From positions 65,026-129,025 of the forward strand of contig SVHV01000001.1 of the NCBI GenBank assembly GCA_015055605.1: 64,000 bases of DNA. The letters are read 5' to 3'. A program made the translations under genes and the position numbers. A model generated the notes under the pieces. The model did no database searches and was not told the DNA's origin. It saw only the letters and a list, made by a program, of their open reading frames with translations. Below, in pieces: positions 5,372-15,994 of this stretch (positions are counted from its first letter, which is position 1; the number at the start of each line of letters is the position of its first letter). The stretch comes from Clostridiales bacterium (GTDB lineage Bacteria > Bacillota > Clostridia > Christensenellales > UBA1242).

Positions 5372-6692
5372 GGGGATTATGAATTTTGATTACAAAAACA
5401 TATTAATAATGGGCTATGGTAAAAGTGGTGAGGCTGTGGAAGAAATTGTGAAAAAACTTCAGGTTGACTACAAAATATACGATGCTAGCAAAAAAATTAC
5501 AGGAGGAAATTATTATTCAACTCTTAGCAAAAAGATAATTAGAGACTTTGATTTACTTGTACTATCTCCTGGGATATCAATCTATAATAAATATGTAGTT
5601 TACGCTGAAAAAATTGGTATCAAAGTTGTGGGAGAACTAGAATTTGGTTACTGGTTTACTTCGTCACCAGTTTTGGCTATCACCGGCACTAATGGGAAGA
5701 CTACAACTACTAGGCTTTTAAATGAAATTGTTGGAACAACTTTTTCGTGTGATGCTTTTGGTAATATAGGTAATCCTCTGAGTTCTGGGTATAATAGAGA
5801 ACTAGACTATATGGTTTGTGAGGTTAGCTCATTTCAACTGGAATCAACATATTCTTTTAAACCATATATTTCAGTTATTCTAAATATTGCAGAAGACCAT
5901 ATAGATAGACATAAGACCTTTGAAAACTATATTTGTTGCAAAATGGGGCTACTTAAGAATTGTACGGAAAAATCTCTCGTTGTTCTCAATGCTGATGATA
6001 AGCTCCTAATGGATAGGGGTATCTCTATTAATGCAAAAAAGTATTACATATCTAAGTTTGGAAAAGTGAAGGGAGTGTACTATTTAGATGGAAAAATTTA
6101 TTCTAATATAAGTGGTAATCATCTTTTTTTGGATATGACGGGTTATGATAGGTATTTGCCTATTCTTGATGATTTACTCGCTAGTATTTTAGTGAGTTTG
6201 CTTTTAAAAATAGATAAAGAAAAAATAGTAGAAGCAATAGATAAATTTGAATTATCTCCACATAGACTCGAAAAGGTATGTGAAGATTGTGGGGTAGAGT
6301 ATATTGATGATAGTAAAAGTACAAATATACACAGTACACTCAATGCTTTGGAAAGTACAAAGGGTAATGTTGTATTACTATTAGGTGGAGTAGATAAAAA
6401 ATTAAATTTTGAAAAAATATTTTCTGCCTACGGTAATAAAATTAGTCAGGTTATTGCCTTTGGTGATGCTAGGAAAAAAATACTTAGGAGTGCGAAGAAA
6501 AGTAACTTTGAGAATGTTGTGAGCTATAGATTTTTTTACGATGCAGTAAAGTATGCTTGTGGTATTGCAAAAGAGGGTGAGACGGTGCTACTTTCCCCAG
6601 CCTGTGCGAGTTTTGATGAGTTTAGTAGTTATGCAGAGAGAGGAGATTGTTTTTTAAAAATAATCAAGGAATATGTAAATGCAAAAAACTAG
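5364..6692 (+). CDS. murD: UDP-N-acetylmuramoylalanine--D-glutamate ligase MurD (alternative start ATG 5379)
   Basis: It has the P-loop ITGTNGKTTT, an N-terminal Rossmann-like GYGKSG, and a Mur ligase C-terminal domain. It sits in dcw position. Confidence 0.9.
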   Translation: MCEGIMNFDYKNILIMGYGKSGEAVEEIVKKLQVDYKIYDASKKITGGNYYSTLSKKIIRDFDLLVLSPGISIYNKYVVYAEKIGIKVVGELEFGYWFTSSPVLAITGTNGKTTTTRLLNEIVGTTFSCDAFGNIGNPLSSGYNRELDYMVCEVSSFQLESTYSFKPYISVILNIAEDHIDRHKTFENYICCKMGLLKNCTEKSLVVLNADDKLLMDRGISINAKKYYISKFGKVKGVYYLDGKIYSNISGNHLFLDMTGYDRYLPILDDLLASILVSLLLKIDKEKIVEAIDKFELSPHRLEKVCEDCGVEYIDDSKSTNIHSTLNALESTKGNVVLLLGGVDKKLNFEKIFSAYGNKISQVIAFGDARKKILRSAKKSNFENVVSYRFFYDAVKYACGIAKEGETVLLSPACASFDEFSSYAERGDCFLKIIKEYVNAKN

Positions 6693-7824
6693 AAAATTGA
6701 ATATTGTTTTGATTGTGACTGTAGTTTGTCTATGTTTATTTGGTATACTCATGATTTATAGTGCGAGTTGTTATTCTAGTAATGTTCTCTATGGTGATAG
6801 TTTTCACTTTGTAAAGAAACAATGCTTTGGTTTTTTGATGGGACTGGGGTGTCTAGTTTTTACAGCCCGCTTTGATTATCACAAATATTACAAACTGAGA
6901 TATTGGATAATAGCAACTTCAATTATTTTATTAGTATTGGTTTTTGTGCCTGGTATTGGTATTTCTGCTAATGGTGCTCGGAGATGGATAGGCTTTGGCT
7001 CATTTAACCTGCAGAGTAGTGAGGTTGCTAAATTTGGCTTTGTTATATTTTCTGCTTGTTATTTGTCCAAAAATTATAAGAAAACAAAAACATTTATGGG
7101 TATTCTGCCTATACTGTGTGTAGGAGGATTAATCTGTTTACTCGTAATGTTAGAGCCAAATATGAGTGTGACTATGTGTATAGCAATGGTAATGATTATT
7201 ATGTTGATAATAGGTGGTATGAGGTGGAAACACATTGTTATTCTTGCTATACCAGCATTGGCTCTAGTGGTATTGCTTATAGTCATAGAACCATATCGAT
7301 TAGATAGGCTTATGGCTTTTATTAATCCATGGGCAAATCCCAAAGAAGAGGGCTATCAATTAATACAATCCCTATACTCTCTCGGTGCTGGTGGATTTTT
7401 TGGTGTAGGGCTATTCAATAGTAGACAGAAGTATCTATTTTTACCGTTTAGTGAGAGTGATTTTATCTTTGCTATTATTGGTGAAGAGTTCGGTTTCTTG
7501 GGTTGTGTTATTTTGATTATGGTATACATTTTGATTATATCTATTGGTATCAAAATTGCCATTACTTCGGTAGATAGATTAGGTACATATCTGGCCTCAG
7601 GTATAACATCAGTCATAGCAGTACAGATGCTTATTAATATTGCTGTAGTTACAGGCTCTATTCCTCCGACTGGAATACCACTTCCGTTTATGAGTGCAGG
7701 TGGCACTAGTTTAATGGTGTTTATGGCAGCGATAGGGATACTATGTAATGTGGGGAGGAGTAATCAAGAGAGTGCTAATGGTTTTAATTTATTCAAAATA
7801 AAAAAAATAAAGGAGCATAAATAA
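6679..7824 (+). CDS. ftsW: SEDS-family peptidoglycan glycosyltransferase FtsW/SpoVE
   Basis: It has about 10 TM segments and SEDS motifs (RWIGFGSFNLQSSEVAKF, LPFSESDFIFAIIGEE, IPLPFMSAGGTSL). It follows murD, as spoVE does in B. subtilis. Confidence 0.92.
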   Translation: MQKTRKLNIVLIVTVVCLCLFGILMIYSASCYSSNVLYGDSFHFVKKQCFGFLMGLGCLVFTARFDYHKYYKLRYWIIATSIILLVLVFVPGIGISANGARRWIGFGSFNLQSSEVAKFGFVIFSACYLSKNYKKTKTFMGILPILCVGGLICLLVMLEPNMSVTMCIAMVMIIMLIIGGMRWKHIVILAIPALALVVLLIVIEPYRLDRLMAFINPWANPKEEGYQLIQSLYSLGAGGFFGVGLFNSRQKYLFLPFSESDFIFAIIGEEFGFLGCVILIMVYILIISIGIKIAITSVDRLGTYLASGITSVIAVQMLINIAVVTGSIPPTGIPLPFMSAGGTSLMVFMAAIGILCNVGRSNQESANGFNLFKIKKIKEHK

Positions 7825-7836
7825 TGCTCTTTTTTA
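7813..7836 (+). terminator. Rho-independent terminator overlapping the ftsW stop codon
   Basis: A gagcat / atgctc stem with a 5-nt loop is followed by T6. Confidence 0.6.
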
Positions 7837-7887
7837 TTGTCCCTACATTATTTTATAATGTAATTTTAATAACATCTATTAATTCAT

Positions 7888-7916
7888 TTGACAAAGTTGT
7901 TCGGGGGGGGTAAGAT
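7888..7916 (+). promoter_or_regulatory. Sigma-A-type promoter with a G8 tract inside the spacer (TTGACA, 17 nt, TAAGAT)
   Basis: TTGACA lies at 7888-7893. The spacer at 7894-7910 ends in GGGGGGGG (7903-7910). TAAGAT lies at 7911-7916, about 55 nt upstream of the AAGGAG RBS and ATG at 7970. A paralogous copy lies at 11620-11650. Confidence 0.65.
7903..7910 (+). repeat. Homopolymeric G8 tract (candidate slipped-strand contingency repeat)
   Basis: This is a run of eight G in a genome of about one third G+C. It lies between the -35 and -10 elements. Confidence 0.9.
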
Positions 7917-7969
7917 AAAAATGTATAGATGTGTCGAAAAAGGGCACAATATGTATAAGGAGATAATAA

Positions 7970-9694
7970 ATGGCAAAAAACAAAGACAAGAAAAAAATTC
8001 CTTTTAATACCTTTAGAAAAGGTATTACTGCAGGAACTCTAGGTCTTACTATGTTACTAAGTGGAGCAGGAATGCTTGCTGGTTGTGGTGAGAAGGGTGA
8101 CAGAGGTGAAGTTGGTGCTACAGGTAAGAGTGCTTATGAAATTGCAGTGGAATATGGATTTTCTGGCACCGAAGCCGAATGGTTAAACAGCCTAAAAGGT
8201 GCTAACGGAACTTCTAGCTATACACACATAAAATATGCTGATTCAATGCCTGATGAAAATTCGGATATTTTATTAAGTGGAACAGGTGCTTACATTGGTA
8301 TTTATGCAGGGCCAAGTGAAACTGCACCTACTAACTATACCGACTATAGTTGGTATAAAGTTAAGGGTGAAAATCCTAAAATAACCTACGATAAAAATGG
8401 ATACATTGTTGTTGATGGAGTAAAAACAGATGTTTGTTTGTATCCTACCGGGGTTTCTTATCCTTTCAATTTAAATTCAGAAAACTACTCTAGTTATAAA
8501 TACGAATTTAAACAAGCCAATGCTTTAGGTGTTTCTAGCAATATAAGGATTTCACTTTGGTTTGATTACAAATTTAAAGCGGGCACACAATTTAAATGTG
8601 TAGGTGATGATACTAAGTATAAAATGGGTTTACTTATTTCTCGTGATGGTGTTAATTTTGATGCTAGTAAAACCCCTCAAATTGCAGAAGATACTGGTTG
8701 GATTAATAGTTCTTCAGCAACAGGTAATTACAACAAGGGCAGTGGCACAGTAGCACACCCATACGATGCAACAACAAAAACCCTAACTTTAGCCGCAGAT
8801 TCGTATGTAAGAATTGGTTTTGCTACAACAAGTGATGCAGCTATTTCAACATCTAACTTTAACTGGCAAAATTATATTGCAATTACCGGACATTATTTAG
8901 AATATGACAAAATTATAAATGTAACAACTGGCGAAATTCCTACTCAAGTTGGCAATTATGGTATGAATGCAGTTGCACACAGAGGCGCTTCTACTGAAGC
9001 TCCAGAAAACACACTTATTGCATATCAAATTGCAAAAGAGCGTGGCTTTATAATGGCAGAGTGTGATGTAACATTTACTAAAGATGGAGTTGGTGTGTTA
9101 TTACACGATGACACAATTAACAGAACATCTAATGGAACTGGTAATATTAGGGATTTAACTCTTGCCCAAGTTAGACAATACGACTTTGGTAGTTGGAAAG
9201 GTACTGAGTTTGTTGGAACACAAATTCCTACATTTGAAGAATTTATTAGATTATGTAAATATATTGATATGCATCCTTACATTGAAATTAAGAGTGGTTG
9301 TTCACAAGCAGAAGTTGAAAGTTTGGTTGCTACTGTAAGAAAATACGGAATGCTTGATAGAGTTACTTGGATTTCTTTTGAGTTTAGCGCTATACAATAT
9401 GTTAAAAATGTGGATGATACTGCTAGACTTGGTTATTTAGCAGCTCCAATTACAGAACAAAAAATCACAGAATTAAAAACTTTGAGAACCGGTAAAAACG
9501 AAGTGTTCTTTAGTGCTGATAATACAAAAGTAACTACAGCACTTATTGAAAGATGTATTGAAGAAAAAATTCCACTTGAAGTTTGCACTGTTGATAATGT
9601 TGACACCATTACAAACCTACATCCTTACATTACTGGTGTTACAAGTAACGATAAAATTGCTGGTCAGCTTTTATACGACAAATATAAAAAATAA
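7970..9694 (+). CDS. Surface lipoprotein: collagen/tail-fibre-like head module, unknown beta-rich middle domain, and C-terminal glycerophosphodiester phosphodiesterase (GDPD) domain
   Basis: The signal peptide has the lipobox LAGC. A GxxGxxG segment plus SAYEIAVEYGFSGTEAEWLNSLKG follows. The GDPD motifs are AHRGASTEAPENT, ECDVTFTKDGVGVLLHDDTINRTSNGTG, and FEEF...YIEIK. Confidence 0.85.
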   Translation: MAKNKDKKKIPFNTFRKGITAGTLGLTMLLSGAGMLAGCGEKGDRGEVGATGKSAYEIAVEYGFSGTEAEWLNSLKGANGTSSYTHIKYADSMPDENSDILLSGTGAYIGIYAGPSETAPTNYTDYSWYKVKGENPKITYDKNGYIVVDGVKTDVCLYPTGVSYPFNLNSENYSSYKYEFKQANALGVSSNIRISLWFDYKFKAGTQFKCVGDDTKYKMGLLISRDGVNFDASKTPQIAEDTGWINSSSATGNYNKGSGTVAHPYDATTKTLTLAADSYVRIGFATTSDAAISTSNFNWQNYIAITGHYLEYDKIINVTTGEIPTQVGNYGMNAVAHRGASTEAPENTLIAYQIAKERGFIMAECDVTFTKDGVGVLLHDDTINRTSNGTGNIRDLTLAQVRQYDFGSWKGTEFVGTQIPTFEEFIRLCKYIDMHPYIEIKSGCSQAEVESLVATVRKYGMLDRVTWISFEFSAIQYVKNVDDTARLGYLAAPITEQKITELKTLRTGKNEVFFSADNTKVTTALIERCIEEKIPLEVCTVDNVDTITNLHPYITGVTSNDKIAGQLLYDKYKK

Positions 9695-9737
9695 AATTGT
9701 ATGAATAATATAAAAACAAAATAATAGGAGATAAGAT

Positions 9738-11465
9738 ATGTCAAAAGATAAAAATAAAAAACCTTTTAATGTATTAAGTAAAAAAGGTTTAATGACACTT
9801 GCACTTGCTGGTGCTATGGTTGCTAGTCCATTTATGTTTGTAGGTTGTGGTGAAACTGGTCCTAAGGGTGATGCGGGAAGCGTTGGTAAAAGTGCTTATG
9901 AAATAGCTGTAGAAAACGGTTTTACAGGCACAGTTCAGGAGTGGCTAAATAGTTTAAAAGGAACAAGTGGAACTAATGGTTATACTCATATAAAATATGC
10001 AGATTCAATGCCTGATGAAGATGCAGACATTTTAGTATCAGGAACAGGTGCTTACATTGGTATTTACAATGGAACAAGCGAAACAGCACCTACAAGCTAT
10101 ACTGCTTATACATGGCACAAAATTAAAGGTGATACACCAAGTATTGCTTTTGATAGCGAAGGATTTATTATTCTTGATGGTGTAAAAACTAATATTTGTA
10201 TTTATGATGCAGAAATCGAACAAGAAATTGTATATAATGCAGCAACTTATTCTAATTATGAATATGTAAAAAAACAAGGCAATGCTTTAGGATCAGTTGA
10301 TGCTCAGACTGCTAAAAGAACATCTATATGGTATCCTTACAAATTTAAAGAGGGTACAACATTTAAATGTGTAGGGGATGATTCAACTTATAACTACGGT
10401 TTTTCTATTTCTTCCGATGGTGTTAATTTTGATGCAAGAGAAGTTCCTGGTTTAGCAGAAGATACTGGCTGGATTTCTAGCACAACACCTTCAGGAGGCT
10501 TAAACCTTGGAGCTAGTGCAGTTAAACATCAATATAACAAAGATACAAAAACTTTAACTTTAGCTAGAGATTCTTATGTAAGAATTAATTTCAGCACAGC
10601 AGGCCAAACTGGAGAAATTTCACCTAACACTCAAGAATGGGAAAAATATTTTGAAATTAATGGTTCAATTTTAGTTGATTCCGATACAGTTCATATCACA
10701 CCTGATAAATCAGGCGAAGTTAATAGTTATGGTATGAATTCAATTGCCCTTATGGGTTATTCTACCGAAGCTCCGGAAAACACACTTTCTGCAGTTAGAT
10801 TAGCTCATGAAAAAGGCTTTGATATGGTTGCTTGTGATGTTTCATTTACAAGTGACGGTGTTGGTGTACTATTGCATGATGATACAATTGATAGAACTTC
10901 TGATGGAACAGGTAATATTTCAGAAATGACACTTGCCCAAGTTAAAGAATATGACTTTGGTTCTTGGAAGTCTGCTGCTTATGCTGATGAAGAAATTCCT
11001 ACATTTGAAGAATTTATTAAAGTATGTAAATATATGGCAATTCACCCTTACATTCAAGTTAAGAGCAGTGCAACACAAGCAAATATCGAAAGTTTAGTTA
11101 CAACTGTGTTCAGAAGCGGAATGTTAAATAAAGTTACTTGGGTTTCTTCTGATATTGATGTTTTAACAGCTATTAATCAATTAAATGCTAAAGCAAGATT
11201 AGGATATGCAACTGAATCTATTACAACTGATCAAATTGCAGAATTGGAAGCATTAAAAACAGAAACTAACGATGTGTTCTTCTATGCTAATAATGCAAAT
11301 TTAATTGTTTCTCTTGTTGATAGTTGTATTTCTAAATATCTACCAATTGAAGTATATGGGGTTAATGAAGTTTCAGACATTGAAAATTTACACCCTTATA
11401 TTACTGGTGTTGCAAGTAACGACAAAGTTGCTGGACAAATCTTATATGATAAATATATGAAATAA
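9738..11465 (+). CDS. Paralogous surface lipoprotein with a C-terminal GDPD domain, probably co-transcribed with 7970..9694
   Basis: It has the lipobox FVGC and the same head module (SAYEIAVENGFTGTVQEWLNSLKG, YTHIKYADSMPDE). The GDPD motifs are STEAPENT and ACDVSFTSDGVGVLLHDDTIDRTSDGTG. The 43-nt gap upstream contains no promoter or terminator. Confidence 0.85.
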   Translation: MSKDKNKKPFNVLSKKGLMTLALAGAMVASPFMFVGCGETGPKGDAGSVGKSAYEIAVENGFTGTVQEWLNSLKGTSGTNGYTHIKYADSMPDEDADILVSGTGAYIGIYNGTSETAPTSYTAYTWHKIKGDTPSIAFDSEGFIILDGVKTNICIYDAEIEQEIVYNAATYSNYEYVKKQGNALGSVDAQTAKRTSIWYPYKFKEGTTFKCVGDDSTYNYGFSISSDGVNFDAREVPGLAEDTGWISSTTPSGGLNLGASAVKHQYNKDTKTLTLARDSYVRINFSTAGQTGEISPNTQEWEKYFEINGSILVDSDTVHITPDKSGEVNSYGMNSIALMGYSTEAPENTLSAVRLAHEKGFDMVACDVSFTSDGVGVLLHDDTIDRTSDGTGNISEMTLAQVKEYDFGSWKSAAYADEEIPTFEEFIKVCKYMAIHPYIQVKSSATQANIESLVTTVFRSGMLNKVTWVSSDIDVLTAINQLNAKARLGYATESITTDQIAELEALKTETNDVFFYANNANLIVSLVDSCISKYLPIEVYGVNEVSDIENLHPYITGVASNDKVAGQILYDKYMK

Positions 11466-11484
11466 AAATTATAAATATATAAAA

Positions 11485-11513
11485 AGAGTGGGAATTTACT
11501 CCACTCTTTTTTT
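11485..11513 (+). terminator. Rho-independent terminator of the two-gene GDPD lipoprotein unit
   Basis: An agagtgg / ccactct stem is followed by T7. Confidence 0.75.
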
Positions 11514-11540
11514 GTGTTTTTAGTATTAATAGTTGGTATG

Positions 11541-11575
11541 CAACAGGTATGAAGTCTTCCGTTTAGTTTCTGATG
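11541..11575 (+). pseudogene. Degenerate relic resembling the ftsW/spoVE 3' end (out of frame, with a stop)
   Basis: caacaggtat followed by cttccgttta is collinear, with one indel, with the relic at 14307-14388 and with ftsW at 7668-7690. It is too short to be certain. Confidence 0.4.
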
Positions 11576-11619
11576 GAGAAATTGGTCCTTTGATTTTTAT
11601 TTAATATATTAAATAATAT

Positions 11620-11650
11620 TTGACAAAAAGCATCGGGGGGGGGGTAATAT
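11620..11650 (+). promoter_or_regulatory. Paralogous sigma-A-type promoter with a G10 tract in the spacer (TTGACA, 19 nt, TAATAT)
   Basis: TTGACA lies at 11620-11625. The spacer at 11626-11644 ends in G10 (11635-11644). TAATAT lies at 11645-11650. The downstream leader, RBS and first codons are homologous to those of 7888-8000. Confidence 0.65.
11635..11644 (+). repeat. Homopolymeric G10 tract (candidate contingency repeat)
   Basis: This is a run of ten G between the -35 and -10 elements. It is 2 nt longer than the paralogous tract at 7903-7910. Confidence 0.9.
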
Positions 11651-11704
11651 AAAAGTGTATATTAGTGTCTAAATAAGACAAAATATGTATAAAGGAGATA
11701 ATAA

Positions 11705-14170
11705 ATGGCAAAAAACAAAGACAAGAAAACAATCCCTTTCAATGTATTTAGAAAGGGAATAACCGCAGGTGCACTAGGTCTTACTATGTTACTAAGTGGA
11801 GCAGGAATGCTTGCTGGTTGTGGTGAGAAGGGTGACAAAGGTGAAGTTGGTGCTACAGGTAAGAGCGCTTATGAAATTGCTGTAGAAAATGGATTTACTG
11901 GTACAGTTCAAGAGTGGCTAGATAGCCTAAAGGGACAATCTGGTGGTGCAGGTAGTGCAGGTATAGATGGTAAGGGTATTCAGTCTATCACAAAGACTGG
12001 TACAAATGGTCTAGTAGATACATATACAATTACATTTACAGATGGTACATATACTACATTTGAGATTACAAATGGTGCAGAAGGTCCACAAGGCGATCCG
12101 GGACAACCAGGAACTCCAGGACAACCAGGAACTCCGGGTGCTCCAGGACAAAATGGTGCTACTTGGTTAACAGGTACTGCTATTACAGGAACTGGCACAG
12201 GAATCTCTGCAACTATTGCAAATTCAAAAGTTGGCGATTTGTATTTCAACACTAATACTAGCGATATTTATCAATGCACAGCAGAAAACACTTGGAATTG
12301 GATTGCCAATATTAAAGGCGAGAACGGTGAAGATGGTATTTCTGCTTATGTCGGATATGATGGCAACTTGTGGTATGGCACCCAACGAAGTGATTTGCAA
12401 ATTGAAGATTATACCGAATCTGGTGTTTTTGAAAATTCTATTAGAATACCTGGTTCTGAAATGGAAAAATATTTTGAAAGGGAATATGTTAACCTTTCTA
12501 GCAATACAATTGCCTTGATGTCAAATTATATGCCAAATGCAAAACTTACACAGTATAGTGGAGTGAAAGTTAATGAACTTTCTATATATGCAGAAGATGC
12601 AGGTTTATTACAGATAGGTACAGCTAAGGTTGCAGATGTTGTTGACGCTAGATTAAATGGTGTAACTTATTCTTTAACATCTCAATTTTCTTTTAGTGTT
12701 CAAAAAGGATTAAATGATTTAGTTGTTAATATTGAAGTCGCAGAGGATGAAACTTTAGTTGTTGGAGGTAATAACTCGGTTGGATTATATGTGTCAAAAG
12801 GTATAACTAAAACCGGTGTTGAGGGTGATTATACTTTACTTGATCGTAATCAAAATGCTTATGTGTTAGAAATGTCTGATAACATAAAAAACACTTTAGC
12901 TTTAAAAGTAAAAGCAACCCCTTTGGCTGGCATAAAAGCAGTATTCCCAGATTTATTGAATCAAGTAAATCCCGCTATGCAAAATTCTTCATTGCCGGGA
13001 GCGTTGCAAGCTTTCCCATTTCATTATGGAAAAAAAGATTTATTTGCAAATAAGCAAATTGTCAAAATTGGTTTAATTCCAAAAGCCTGTACCGATTTTG
13101 ACAATCCTACTTTCACAGTGTATAAAGTGCGACAAAGTCAAACGACAAATTATACAGATCAAGGCAATTATATTGAAAAGTATACTCTTCAAGTACCAAT
13201 TTCATCTAGTGATGATTATGGTAAATTTGTGTATGTTGATTGTGATATTACAGTTGGCGCAAATGAAAAAATAGTATTTGGTGATCCTAGCGATACTGTC
13301 AATTGGGGGTATTTAAGGGAAGTTGCTCCAGAGTATTCAGTGTCAGAAAATCAAGATCCAAATGCTGCTAGTTACACATGCTTAATTTTTGATATTTATG
13401 AATATTCAGATTTTACTTACGAAGACCATATTAACAAACTAAAAGAAGAAGAGATTAATGCGTCGGGTGTACTTAATGCAAAATATGAGGAATTGGCATC
13501 TATTTTAAAAAATAAAACAATTTCTATTTTAGGAGATAGTATTAGTACTTATAACGAATATTCAGAAGGGTCTGCTGCTCAGACATCAAATAGCACAATT
13601 GGTAGTAACTCATTATTTTATACAGGTGAAAATATTATTTCTGATGTGAATGATACTTGGTGGATGCAACTTATTAATCAAACAGAAATGAAATTGCTAG
13701 TTAATAATTCTTTTTCTGGGGATGAAGTATGGAATCGTGGTCAAACAAGATGTGAACAACTTCATGATGATACAGGAACTAATGCGGGGACAGAACCTGA
13801 TTTTATTGCTGTGTATTTAGGAACAAATGATTTAAATAGAAGTGCAACTGTTGAAGACTTTACAACAAACTATAGAAATATGGTTAATAAAATCCTTACT
13901 AAATATACAAATTCCGAAGTGTTCTTGTTTACATTATTGCCAAATGGACAACCAATAGAAAGACAAGATGCATTTAATAATGCTATTAGAAGTATTGCTG
14001 AAGAATTGAATTGTGGGTTAGTAGACATAAATGCTGAAAGTGGTTTCACATCGAGCAATTTTAGAATTTATACTGCGGATGGTACACATCCAAATAGTTG
14101 GGGTATGGATTTAATTTCTGAGTGTTTTTGGAATGTCTTATACGATAAATATGTAACAAATGCTGATTAA
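11705..14170 (+). CDS. Surface lipoprotein: shared head module, collagen-like GXY tract, large unknown middle region, and C-terminal SGNH/GDSL hydrolase domain
   Basis: The first ~60 aa are nearly identical to the 7970 product (lipobox LAGC). The collagen tract reads GPQGDPGQPGTPGQPGTPGAPGQNG. The SGNH blocks are ILGDSIS (I), LGTNDL (III) and DGTHPN (V). Confidence 0.85.
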   Translation: MAKNKDKKTIPFNVFRKGITAGALGLTMLLSGAGMLAGCGEKGDKGEVGATGKSAYEIAVENGFTGTVQEWLDSLKGQSGGAGSAGIDGKGIQSITKTGTNGLVDTYTITFTDGTYTTFEITNGAEGPQGDPGQPGTPGQPGTPGAPGQNGATWLTGTAITGTGTGISATIANSKVGDLYFNTNTSDIYQCTAENTWNWIANIKGENGEDGISAYVGYDGNLWYGTQRSDLQIEDYTESGVFENSIRIPGSEMEKYFEREYVNLSSNTIALMSNYMPNAKLTQYSGVKVNELSIYAEDAGLLQIGTAKVADVVDARLNGVTYSLTSQFSFSVQKGLNDLVVNIEVAEDETLVVGGNNSVGLYVSKGITKTGVEGDYTLLDRNQNAYVLEMSDNIKNTLALKVKATPLAGIKAVFPDLLNQVNPAMQNSSLPGALQAFPFHYGKKDLFANKQIVKIGLIPKACTDFDNPTFTVYKVRQSQTTNYTDQGNYIEKYTLQVPISSSDDYGKFVYVDCDITVGANEKIVFGDPSDTVNWGYLREVAPEYSVSENQDPNAASYTCLIFDIYEYSDFTYEDHINKLKEEEINASGVLNAKYEELASILKNKTISILGDSISTYNEYSEGSAAQTSNSTIGSNSLFYTGENIISDVNDTWWMQLINQTEMKLLVNNSFSGDEVWNRGQTRCEQLHDDTGTNAGTEPDFIAVYLGTNDLNRSATVEDFTTNYRNMVNKILTKYTNSEVFLFTLLPNGQPIERQDAFNNAIRSIAEELNCGLVDINAESGFTSSNFRIYTADGTHPNSWGMDLISECFWNVLYDKYVTNAD
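12101..12136 (+). repeat. Perfect-but-one 18-nt tandem duplication encoding GQPGTP x2 within the collagen-like tract
   Basis: ggacaaccaggaactcca is followed directly by ggacaaccaggaactccg. Confidence 0.85.
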
Positions 14171-14183
14171 TATTAAATAATTA

Positions 14184-14212
14184 AGAGTGGAAAATTATTC
14201 CACTCTTTTTTA
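14184..14212 (+). terminator. Rho-independent terminator after the SGNH lipoprotein gene
   Basis: An agagtgg / ccactct stem with a 9-nt loop is followed by T6. Confidence 0.75.
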
Positions 14213-14306
14213 TATCAAAAATTGAAATGGCAGTTAGTACCTGTCTTTTTTGAATATAATTAAAGTGAAAAACAATTATATTATATTTTATAATGCAATA
14301 ACTGAT

Positions 14307-14388
14307 GTTAACAGGTAGCATTCCACCAACAGGTATACCACTTCCGTTTATGAGTGCAGGAGGAACTATCCTTATGGTCTTTATGGTT
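14307..14388 (+). pseudogene. Orphan fragment of an ftsW/spoVE 3' end (would encode TGSIPPTGIPLPFMSAGGTILMVFM)
   Basis: It aligns with ftsW 7648-7730. A 26-nt identical core (ataccacttccgtttatgagtgcagg; 7675-7700 = 14335-14360) is flanked mostly by synonymous-type differences. No upstream part of the gene is present. Confidence 0.8.
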
Positions 14389-14412
14389 AAGAGTGGTTTT
14401 GAAAGAGGGGTA

Positions 14413-14441
14413 TTGAAATTGGTGTTTATTTGTGTTATAAT
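14413..14441 (+). promoter_or_regulatory. Sigma-A-type promoter for the first orphan gene (TTGAAA, 17 nt, extended TGtTATAAT)
   Basis: TTGAAA lies at 14413-14418 and TATAAT at 14436-14441, preceded by TG. This places the TSS downstream of the ORF-track start at 14430 and so supports ATG 14475. Confidence 0.6.
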
Positions 14442-14474
14442 TTAATCACTCAAATTATGGAGGGGTTAAAAATT

Positions 14475-15386
14475 ATGGGAATTATAGAGTTTTTTCGTAA
14501 AAAATTCGCAAAAGATGAGGCTGAACAAACAACAACTGTTGATCAGGGTGTAAGCGAAGAAAAGTTTGTATCTGATTTAAGCTTTGTGGAAATGCAAGAT
14601 GCAGACTGGAGAAAGTTTGCTGGAATTCTTAAGAAAGAGGGTGTTTTATCTAATTCTTATGAAAAAAGTCCTGTTTCTATTGAGTATTATGTTGCAAAGG
14701 ATAATACTCCTGTGGTAGATATGACTTTTAAGTCAGCAACTTCAGACAGTGTTAGAAGAGTTCAGTTAATGAATAATTCTGCATTTTTGTTTGTGAATGG
14801 TGCTATAGAGTCTTTTCCTGAAACCAAAAGAAACAAGGACCTAAATCGTTTATGGGCAGATTTTCAAAATAGACTAAGACATTATAATATGGTGGATATT
14901 AATCGTGAGGGGTATTTACATGCTCTTCGTGGCAAGAGATTAATGAAAAAAGCTCAAAAGATGATGGGAATGCGAGATATTTATGATCGTGAACAAGAAT
15001 TTTTGAAACAAAATAAAGATGCTGTTTATGATGAGTTCTGTTATTCTGCTGTGTTTGAAAGAAATGAAAATGGTTTTTATGATTACGCTGGTGAGATGCC
15101 TAAATTTGTGCCTTTAGTAGAAACAGAAGATGGTCATTTTGTTAGTGGTGAACCAGTTATGCCATTTACTCCTAGAACACTAGAGCATTGTATTTTGCGT
15201 ATGACAGAAGGTCAAAAAGTAGAAGACGGAGAGTTCCTTGTAGAATTCGAAAAGAAATGTAGACAACTTCAAGAGTATTCTTGTTTTGAATCAGAAGATT
15301 GGGATAGAGTTATAGGCTTTGGTAAAAACATTGTTAGGAATCAATACTTGACAAGTATGACGGCTGATGACTGTCAAATGAGATAA
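14475..15386 (+). CDS. Hypothetical cytoplasmic protein (303 aa), no recognisable motif
   Basis: It is a long ORF with a GGAGGGG RBS 8 nt upstream of ATG 14475. It has its own promoter and its own terminator. Confidence 0.6.
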   Translation: MGIIEFFRKKFAKDEAEQTTTVDQGVSEEKFVSDLSFVEMQDADWRKFAGILKKEGVLSNSYEKSPVSIEYYVAKDNTPVVDMTFKSATSDSVRRVQLMNNSAFLFVNGAIESFPETKRNKDLNRLWADFQNRLRHYNMVDINREGYLHALRGKRLMKKAQKMMGMRDIYDREQEFLKQNKDAVYDEFCYSAVFERNENGFYDYAGEMPKFVPLVETEDGHFVSGEPVMPFTPRTLEHCILRMTEGQKVEDGEFLVEFEKKCRQLQEYSCFESEDWDRVIGFGKNIVRNQYLTSMTADDCQMR

Positions 15387-15414
15387 GAGCAAACAAATTG
15401 CTCTTATTTTTTTA
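15385..15414 (+). terminator. Rho-independent terminator
   Basis: An aagagca / tgctctt stem is followed by a T-rich run. Confidence 0.7.
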
Positions 15415-15481
15415 GTTTTTTGGGTATTTACAATGTGGTATAAGTATGTTACAATTTCTCTATATAAAGGGGAGAAAAGTA

Positions 15482-15994
15482 ATGATTACTAAACAGCCGA
15501 GACCAGAACATCAGGGGTGCTATGACCTAACAGTTACAGATAGGGACGGTAAGTCTTTTATAATGACTGTGGGAGGAAACTTTGACCTTTACTGGTTACC
15601 AGAAAATCATAAAGAAAATAGAACCTTTGGTATTGACCGAGAGGATGAATTTACATTTAATATATTTGAGCAATTATTTGATGCTGTTGGCAAAAAAGAC
15701 GATAAGTATCGTCCAGTTTTGCAGGATAATACCATTAAGTTTATTAGTGAGGATTGGCCGGAAGAAGAGGCTAATCATTTACTAATTACTAGAGAAAAAG
15801 ATTCTTTTCAAATAGACTTTGTGCAGAATGAAGACAAAGAGTCGTGGACTTATCCACATAGAGGTTGTGCGATTTGTTTTTGTAATAGTGGTAGTAGGGT
15901 GCCTAAGGTTGAGTCATTATTTATGAGAATGTTTAACTATCTTGCTTATGAGTGCGATATGGTACAATGTGAGCATGATGACAATGTAATGTAA
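15482..15994 (+). CDS. Hypothetical acidic cytoplasmic protein (170 aa)
   Basis: ATG 15482 follows an AGGGGAG RBS. The promoter TTTACA(15427)-17 nt-TACAAT(15450) lies downstream of the ORF-track start at 15446, so the shorter form is favoured. Confidence 0.55.
   Translation: MITKQPRPEHQGCYDLTVTDRDGKSFIMTVGGNFDLYWLPENHKENRTFGIDREDEFTFNIFEQLFDAVGKKDDKYRPVLQDNTIKFISEDWPEEEANHLLITREKDSFQIDFVQNEDKESWTYPHRGCAICFCNSGSRVPKVESLFMRMFNYLAYECDMVQCEHDDNVM

Follow-up and report, generated by a model that had tools for sequence, protein, structure and literature searches.

The window analysed here, a stretch of 64,000 nucleotides from contig SVHV01000001.1 of a Clostridiales bacterium (GC content ~33%), carries three paralogous genes coding for predicted lipoproteins in the gap between ftsW/spoVE and murA of its division and cell wall (dcw) cluster. 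They are arranged in two units, each preceded by a promoter in which a tract of G residues occupies part of the spacer between the -35 and -10 hexamers. The tracts are likely genuine hypermutable switches, an assignment supported by the comparison of sequences in which their lengths differ between otherwise nearly identical contigs. A combined explanation, in which these switches would control enzymes that edit the surface of the cell producing them, is moderately favoured. Lipoprotein genes 1 (7970..9694, 574 aa) and 2 (9738..11465, 575 aa) were assigned from the list of open reading frames (ORFs) and the Pfam GDPD (glycerophosphodiester phosphodiesterase) family, and gene 3 (11705..14170, 821 aa) from the ORF list and Pfam Lipase_GDSL_2; all lie on the + strand. 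Terminator-like hairpins followed by a T run are found on the same strand 3' of ftsW (7809..7833), after gene 2 (11481..11511, closing unit 1) and after gene 3 (14183..14207, closing unit 2), the last two being paralogous. They therefore delimit two transcription units, one formed by genes 1 and 2 and the other by gene 3. Gene 2, which has its own ribosome-binding site 3' of a 43-nt gap, is predicted to be co-transcribed with gene 1. Both the position of the three paralogues between ftsW and the rest of the dcw cluster and their division in two units had been put forward in an earlier reading of this DNA (the original prediction), and both hold.

Promoter P1 (7888..7916, + strand) is composed of TTGACA (7888-7893), nine non-G spacer bases (AAGTTGTTC), a G8 tract (7903-7910) and TAAGAT (7911-7916), giving a spacer of 17 nt. 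Promoter P2 (11620..11650, + strand) has the same organization, with TTGACA (11620-11625), the nine bases AAAAGCATC, G10 (11635-11644) and TAATAT (11645-11650), and its spacer is 19 nt long. These coordinates agree with the paralogous poly-G promoters described before. Each promoter features a perfect TTGACA, a TAnnAT hexamer, an AT-rich upstream region and a terminator ahead of its unit, and the two units share 88.7% identity over the 265 nt that extend from the tract into the sequence coding the protein head. Apart from these tracts, the 64 kb contain no run of six or more G or C; base composition predicts ~0.14 runs of at least G8 and 0.006 runs of at least G10, which the tracts exceed. A different -35 hexamer for P2, which would restore a 17-nt spacer, was rejected, matching 2/6 positions. 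No Rfam match to a riboswitch or other known RNA was found in the leaders at E values up to 0.1.

Variation within the species was assessed in seven independent metagenome contigs that encode identical proteins (2.8-24 kb each, ~88 kb aligned in total). They are 99.98-100% identical to the window, from which they differ by two single-nucleotide polymorphisms (SNPs; positions 8451 and 11866) and three indels, apparent mismatches at one end of contig L002 being adapter sequence. All three indels are one additional G inside a promoter tract. At tract 1, four contigs have G8 and two have G9 (L005 and L008, spacer of 18 nt); at tract 2, five have G10 and one has G11 (L001/L007, spacer of 20 nt). 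The length combinations observed (tract 1/tract 2) are 8/10, 8/11 and 9/10, three of the four or more that are possible. The locus is present in the samples JGI 3300024270, 3300024268 and 3300022660, ENA ERZ27248314, ERZ27248351, ERZ27248436 and ERZ27248446, and SRR7031456. By contrast, the four A/T runs of 8-9 nt that the contigs have in common kept their length in all 13 contig-by-run comparisons. Contig L002 stops 3 nt past tract 2, and L014 and L095 begin inside the homologous tract; such assembly breaks are suggestive of heterogeneity among the reads, or of poor read quality at this site. An exact-pattern scan of metagenome contigs for both specific promoters gave no match in a collection that does not hold this species, the pattern itself recovering the retrieved loci. 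The heterogeneity across assemblies by which the original prediction could be checked is thus found. Its description as a two-switch contingency locus stands as far as the hypermutable spacer tracts are concerned, while its “four ON/OFF combinations” are an extrapolation: P2 always has a spacer of 19-20 nt and P1 one of 17-18 nt.

The same promoter organization is kept in relatives. In L010, L097 and L011, where identity to the first GDPD lipoprotein of the window is 87%, 87% and 76%, the gene pair is found again 3' of ftsW behind promoters of the form TTGACA-N9-G8/G9/G9-TAGTAT, respectively, in which the nine non-G spacer bases have diverged. L098 likewise keeps TTGACA-N9-poly-G-TAGTAT with differing spacer bases, and the G8 of L010 is replaced by G9 in a short contig that shares 93% identity with it. 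In L094, a 41% identical homologue of lipoprotein 3 is encoded at an unrelated site, after pfk, and is preceded by TTGACA-N9-G10-TAAGAT and by a leader almost the same as the one of P2. Conservation of the tract, of its 9-nt offset and of the hexamers, set against the drift of tract length and of the neighbouring bases, is the pattern expected of a selected repeat switch. A scan of genome contigs by full-length alignment, which was keyed on GDPD motifs, returned almost exclusively generic GDPD genes, L014 being the sole close relative. The 5' leaders (7917-7969 and 11651-11704) have a short hairpin at the same place whose sequence differs by lineage (GTCT..AGAC in P2 and L094; TTAAAAC..GTTTTAA in L010, L011 and L097), and which may be a conserved stem-loop.

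Metagenome contigs were also scanned for the generic pattern TTGACA-N9-G(8 or more)-N0-4-TARKAT, which yielded at least 120 stretches (L098-L217), with G8-11 tracts followed by TAAGAT, TAATAT or TAGTAT; the scan selects the promoter by design and is blind to tracts shorter than eight. The results that follow refer to the matches listed. An ORF fitting the lipobox pattern begins within ~160 nt downstream in 52/123 cases, against a background of 8.5% for ORFs of at least 100 aa on the same contigs. After clustering, 13/63 families fit the pattern; inspection by eye indicates that a few of the 13 are false, that about six more lipoprotein families were missed and that several more have ordinary signal peptides. 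Tract lengths span G8-G11, G8-G9 and G8-G10 in the three largest families, and contigs with identical 189-nt flanks differ in their tracts (8/8/9 and 8/9/9). Among the matches are human-gut contigs of 55-60% GC, many unrelated families and the substrate-binding lipoprotein of an ABC transporter found in Mediterraneibacter. Both the enrichment for surface proteins and the spread of tract lengths agree with the window, and the survey suggests that promoters of this poly-G type stand ahead of many lipoprotein genes among gut Clostridia. Contigs L127, L153 and L182 carry two tandem paralogous lipoprotein genes (MRLYKKAAAV...) ~1.2 kb apart, each with its own poly-G promoter, which is the two-switch layout of the window in an unrelated high-GC organism.

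The three proteins of the window begin with a basic n-region rich in Lys, followed by a hydrophobic segment and then a lipobox, which reads LAGC in proteins 1 and 3 (residues 36-39) and FVGC in protein 2 (residues 34-37). The lipobox Cys, C39 in protein 1, is invariant among the 23 homologues compared. Signal peptide and lipobox identify the three as putative bacterial lipoproteins for which lipidation is predicted. The lipobox is followed in all of them by five Gly-X-Y triplets and the module GKSAYEIAVExGFxGTxxEWLxSLKG. This shared amino terminus was read from the ORFs, as in the original prediction, whose suggestion that the head resembles modules of phage tail fibers and receptor-binding proteins is borne out: the head (residues ~34-84) matches several PHROG tail and tail-fiber families (E 1e-7 to 1e-13). 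A tblastn search with residues 40-331 matched 259 phage records, the best including antireceptors of Streptococcus thermophilus phages with 41% identity over the head and the adjoining YTHIKY module (E 7e-5). The head of protein 3 is 86% identical to that of protein 1 and is extended by ten further Gly-X-Y triplets, the collagen repeat (PF01391) scoring 24.3 bits in this protein, below the Pfam cut-off of 27.2.

In lipoprotein 1 the lipobox, the five triplets with the SAYEIAV head and the YTHIKY module are followed by a beta-sandwich (residues ~160-310) and the GDPD domain; lipoprotein 2 is 54% identical to it and has the same architecture. The Pfam GDPD family (PF03009, cut-off 23.6) matches protein 1 with 110 bits (2e-31) and protein 2 with 100 bits (2e-28), and the predicted GDPD fold is a TIM-barrel (TMt 0.79-0.84 to 2pz0 and 5t9b). 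The catalytic set of GDPD enzymes comprises two His, an Arg and Glu/Asp/Glu metal ligands (PMC10194240, after Shi et al. 2008). By alignment to the Thermoanaerobacter tengcongensis GDPD protein 2pz0, protein 1 carries the full set (H337, R338, E364, D366, H379, E439). Protein 2 has L338, M339, A365 and Q440 at four catalytic or metal positions and keeps D367 and H380 alone. The two complete motif sets that had been claimed are therefore reduced to one, that of protein 1, protein 2 having no His, Arg or two Glu at the corresponding positions. The same losses recur in the orthologues P0014, P0016, P0018, P0019, P0020 and P0023, which indicates a conserved and probably non-catalytic paralogue; protein 2 is probably a pseudoenzyme.

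The closest matches of the predicted GDPD fold are the central spike petal of phage phi812, Bacillus subtilis GlpQ and GDPD proteins of Lactobacillus and Lactococcus phages; resemblance extends to the T. tengcongensis enzyme and to the carboxyl terminus domain of phage K gp155. Taken over its full length, protein 1 is similar to the GDPD proteins encoded by Lactobacillus phages Bromius and phiLdb and by Lactococcus phage 340, the best structural matches among phage proteins being 9eul (E 1.6e-18) and the Bromius protein (E 3.7e-24 over 568 columns). Cleavage of wall teichoic acid has been either proposed or demonstrated for phage GDPD domains of this type (PMC13433997; PMC10194240), and for the phi812 petal it was proposed by its authors (PMC13433997). 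The window proteins share with this group (Staphylococcus phage 812 spike petal, K gp155, and the proteins of Ld17, Bromius and Lactococcus phage 340) amino terminus modules of the trimeric-fiber type, a beta-sandwich and a carboxyl terminus GDPD domain. They differ in having a lipoprotein signal peptide and a chromosomal location beside ftsW with no phage genes nearby. The eight closest GDPD ORFs of viral contigs, 44-47% identical in the domain, have neither lipobox, SAYEIAV head nor G tract. Together, the lipobox and the contrast to these viral relatives point to cellular lipoproteins assembled from phage-tail-type modules rather than to virion genes. The GlpQ structure (5T9B) has the GDPD TIM-barrel (TMt 0.79) and the same catalytic His/Arg/Glu/Asp set as protein 1, but GlpQ, which is cited as a teichoicase (PMC13433997), is a small, secreted, single-domain protein under phosphate-starvation control, without fiber head, lipid anchor or repeat switch.

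Lipoprotein 3 consists of the head, the ten extra Gly-X-Y triplets, a tail-fiber-like repeat, beta-sandwich domains and a carboxyl terminus SGNH esterase domain (Pfam Lipase_GDSL_2, 3e-16, 61 bits; cut-off 32.9). SGNH blocks I, II, III and V are all present (GDS 610-612, G672, GTND 706-709 and DGTH 792-795), in line with the GDS, GxND and DxxH blocks announced earlier. Its structural model (mean pLDDT 70) is nearest to CE2 carbohydrate esterases and to the peptidoglycan O-acetylesterase Ape1 (E 1e-9 to 4e-8). CE2 enzymes and Campylobacter jejuni Ape1, its best structural matches, have the same succession of a beta-sandwich and an SGNH domain, but carry neither a collagen-like or fiber head nor a lipobox.

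The proposed mechanism starts at a sigma-A-type promoter for each unit, in which the distance between the -35 and -10 hexamers equals 9 nt plus the poly-G tract. Slipped-strand mispairing during replication would add or remove single G residues, shifting the spacer among lengths of 17 nt (optimal), 18, 19 and 20 nt (poor). Each unit would then be transcribed more or less strongly, in a heritable but reversible manner. Unit 1 would supply an active GDPD lipoprotein together with a dead paralogue that may retain ligand binding, and unit 2 a carbohydrate-esterase-like SGNH lipoprotein. The lipidated Cys would anchor all three, which probably trimerise through the collagen-like head of phage-fiber type and so would hold their enzyme domains in the wall. 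There the enzymes would edit the cell's own glycerol-phosphate polymers, of the teichoic-acid type, and the O-acetylation of its glycans. A clonal population would split into subpopulations that differ in their surface, affecting phage receptors and the targets of antibodies and lectins. We infer the transcription starts, trimerisation, substrates and biological role, as well as the ON/OFF effect, which is taken from the 17 ± 1 nt spacer rule. Stochastic remodelling of the surface or variation of phage receptors is a plausible outcome; remodelling by these enzymes of the envelope of the cell that makes them is, taken by itself, put forward tentatively.

Several points weigh against this explanation. 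Tract variation was seen between consensus assemblies only, and homopolymers are error-prone. P2, always at 19-20 nt, is presumably weak or OFF and could be a decaying promoter, while both P1 spacers (17 and 18 nt) can be active, so that tract changes may modulate transcription rather than turn it ON and OFF. A G tract is missing from some homologues (L096 and L012). In several related species the GDPD pair has the same syntenic place 3' of ftsW, consistent with a conserved and possibly housekeeping function in the wall. Finally, protein 2 is probably not an enzyme, and the explanation presumes that this organism has glycerol-phosphate teichoic acids.

The alternative that survives best retains the switch but gives the enzymes another target: foreign or environmental teichoic acids, phospholipid head groups or acetylated glycans, which they would degrade to scavenge phosphate or carbon or to attack competitors. 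The main benefit of phase variation would in that case be a lower cost, or an escape of the exposed proteins from antibodies and phages. We consider this rather unlikely. It finds support in the phosphate-starvation role of GlpQ, a close structural match, as a teichoicase, in the action of CE2-type esterases on plant glycans, and in the ABC substrate-binding lipoprotein recovered by the generic scan, from which it follows that nutrient-uptake lipoproteins carry such promoters too. On the other hand, a lipid anchor confines the enzymes to the producer's own wall, their architecture copies phage wall-penetrating proteins and not scavenging enzymes, and the locus lies inside the wall and division cluster.

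That the G tracts are fixed promoter elements, belonging to a duplicated cassette or binding a regulator, and that the ±1 G differences reflect sequencing or assembly error in a locus without phase variation, is improbable. Such a view is compatible with the sole use of consensus assemblies, with differences that are all single G residues and with contig breaks that could stem from poor read quality at the tract. It accounts poorly for consensus lengths that differ between samples having 2 SNPs in 88 kb of flanking sequence, for the invariance of A/T runs of 8-9 nt, and for the persistence of a tract of varying length in species whose spacer bases have diverged. The pattern also recurs in unrelated high-GC families, with lengths differing between identical flanks, and a run of 8-11 G in a 33% GC genome is intrinsically slippage-prone from what is generally known of simple sequence repeats. 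It is highly improbable that the genes are non-functional passengers in the decaying remains of an integrative element or of a prophage tail module that had been captured at the ftsW 3' end, as the match of head and GDPD modules to phage tail-fiber and baseplate families and the duplicated, att-like ftsW 3' ends flanking the segment might suggest, since there is no integrase or other phage gene among neighbours that are dcw genes and ORFs without phage-family function, all three ORFs are intact with identical proteins in many samples, every close homologue has the lipoprotein signal peptide that the eight viral relatives do not have, and the gene pair is syntenic across species; identity as virion tail fibers was rejected on the dcw-cluster site, the signal peptide and the absence of nearby phage genes.

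The genomic setting of the locus is that of a division and cell wall cluster with a variable gap. Upstream are the genes of a penicillin-binding protein (885), murE (2895), mraY (4391), murD (5364) and ftsW/spoVE (6679..7824, + strand, 381 aa; Pfam FTSW_RODA_SPOVE, 1e-102), which is the upstream neighbour of the lipoprotein genes. Downstream, murA (18586) is followed by ftsQ, ftsA, ftsZ, spoIIGA, sigE and sigG. This gene order fits a spore-forming member of the Clostridia. The lipoprotein genes occupy the ftsW-murA gap, where relatives differ between the GDPD pair and murA, with NUDIX and large unknown proteins in L011 and Fic and leucine-rich repeat proteins in L012; a different cargo in each relative identifies the gap as a variable hotspot.

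Two remnants of the ftsW 3' end are found in the segment. The first, 5'-truncated (14311..14386, + strand), is 76 nt long, 80% identical to the stretch that closes the conserved portion of ftsW (7651-7726) and forms the distal edge of a 6.66-kb segment; it is called as a 46-aa ORF with a weak FTSW_RODA_SPOVE match in L001/L007/L008. The second, degenerate (11541..11604, + strand), lies just 5' of P2; its alignment score of 30 compares to 16.6 ± 2.4 for shuffled sequences, 0/500 of which reach 30. Direct repeats of the end of the target gene, as in genomic islands, are thus found at both borders. No remnants were found in the relatives, comparison with which did not discriminate the native ftsW 3' copy, and Pfam and PHROG searches of 7825-18423 gave no match to an integrase or recombinase. 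These features suggest that cassettes of promoter and gene each brought a piece of the ftsW end in a stepwise manner, like the single-crossover integration of circular DNA. The GDPD pair is old at the site, and the SGNH unit and ftsW remnants are lineage-specific. Insertion after ftsW, as formerly described, agrees with the ftsW 3'-end copy at 14311-14386 but not with a recent event for the GDPD pair, which has the same position in relatives.

Between the distal remnant and murA, a strong promoter-like site (14413-14441) is found, and 14430-18423 holds five consecutive ORFs on the + strand (318, 182, 215, 307 and 177 aa) with no Pfam match and essentially no PHROG match. Elsewhere in the window, a 92-aa ORF (33901-34179, + strand) has a Cys-rich amino terminus (CNCGCNCGCGC) followed by ~10 Gly-X-Y triplets, coding for a putative small collagen-like protein that is possibly spore- or surface-associated. 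The gene at 40570-44097 (+ strand) codes for a protein of 1175 aa that has a signal peptide and Ig-like domains of bacterial type (Big_13, Bact_surface_Ig-like); this gene and the lipoprotein genes have in common a GC skew lower than that of their surroundings.

The preferred reading, a slippage-driven promoter switch of enzymes acting on the producer's own surface, has parallels in distant bacteria. Tracts in the promoter spacer govern phase variation of surface proteins in Neisseria meningitidis porA (poly-G) and opc (poly-C) and in Bordetella pertussis fim (poly-C). The likeness lies in the G/C run between the -35 and -10 hexamers, where single-base slippage alters spacer length and hence promoter strength. 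Those systems, however, belong to Gram-negative pathogens and control porins, adhesins and fimbriae, whereas here the predicted ON/OFF states concern lipid-anchored wall-polymer hydrolases of an uncultured, spore-forming member of the Clostridia. In the Vlp system of Mycoplasma hyorhinis, a poly-A tract in the promoter spacer sets independent ON/OFF states of paralogous lipoprotein genes with a shared 5' region and signal peptide. It is the closest mechanistic likeness, combining a Firmicutes-related lineage, paralogous lipoproteins and a spacer homopolymer. Its tract is poly-A, though, the Vlps form a coat of repetitive antigens that carry no enzyme domain, and mycoplasmas have no wall. The general mechanism of phase variation by repeat slippage has been reviewed (PMC11868660), and in Treponema pallidum the transcription of the tpr surface-protein genes is modulated by the length of a poly-G tract close to the promoter, upstream of the transcription start (PMC7864442). 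Phylum and gene family differ in this last case, and the likeness is drawn from the poly-G close to the promoter.

Within the Clostridia, CwpV of Clostridioides difficile is a phase-variable surface protein that alters phage susceptibility (PMC4737114). A phase-variable surface protein in a spore-former is the common trait, while CwpV relies on recombinase-driven DNA inversion and belongs to the wall proteins of S-layer type rather than to the lipoprotein enzymes. Almost all of the phase variation known in gut commensals is due to DNA inversions, with examples in Bacteroides (capsules) and in C. difficile (cwpV, flagella and c-di-GMP phosphodiesterases). In a 2025 review of the subject, Clostridioides is cited for inversions only, and no repeat-based case is given for Clostridia (PMC11868660). 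A literature search of partial coverage, in which absence is no proof, found no report of repeat-based promoter switching in Clostridia or Lachnospiraceae. Promoter-spacer repeat switches are known as a kind; their occurrence in Clostridia and their control of phage-tail-like wall enzymes appear to be new.

A bolder extension would see in the TTGACA-N9-poly(G)-TAnnAT promoters a widespread, undescribed phase-variation system of surface lipoproteins and secreted proteins in gut Clostridia, spanning low-GC spore-formers, Lachnospiraceae such as Mediterraneibacter and lineages of 55-60% GC, with the phage-tail-derived hydrolases of this locus editing the cell's own phage receptors as a phase-variable defence; it is possible but doubtful. 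If the poly-G promoters are switches, as their length polymorphism implies, repeat-driven contingency loci exist in spore-forming gut Firmicutes and their switches can be read directly from metagenomes as mixtures of tract lengths. Lipid-anchored enzymes built from phage tail-fiber and baseplate modules would be a new class of cargo for such loci, linking phage-derived wall-degrading domains to heterogeneity of the host surface and possibly to phage resistance. The poly-G promoter would provide a simple sequence signature by which more switchable surface genes may be recognized in uncultured Clostridia.

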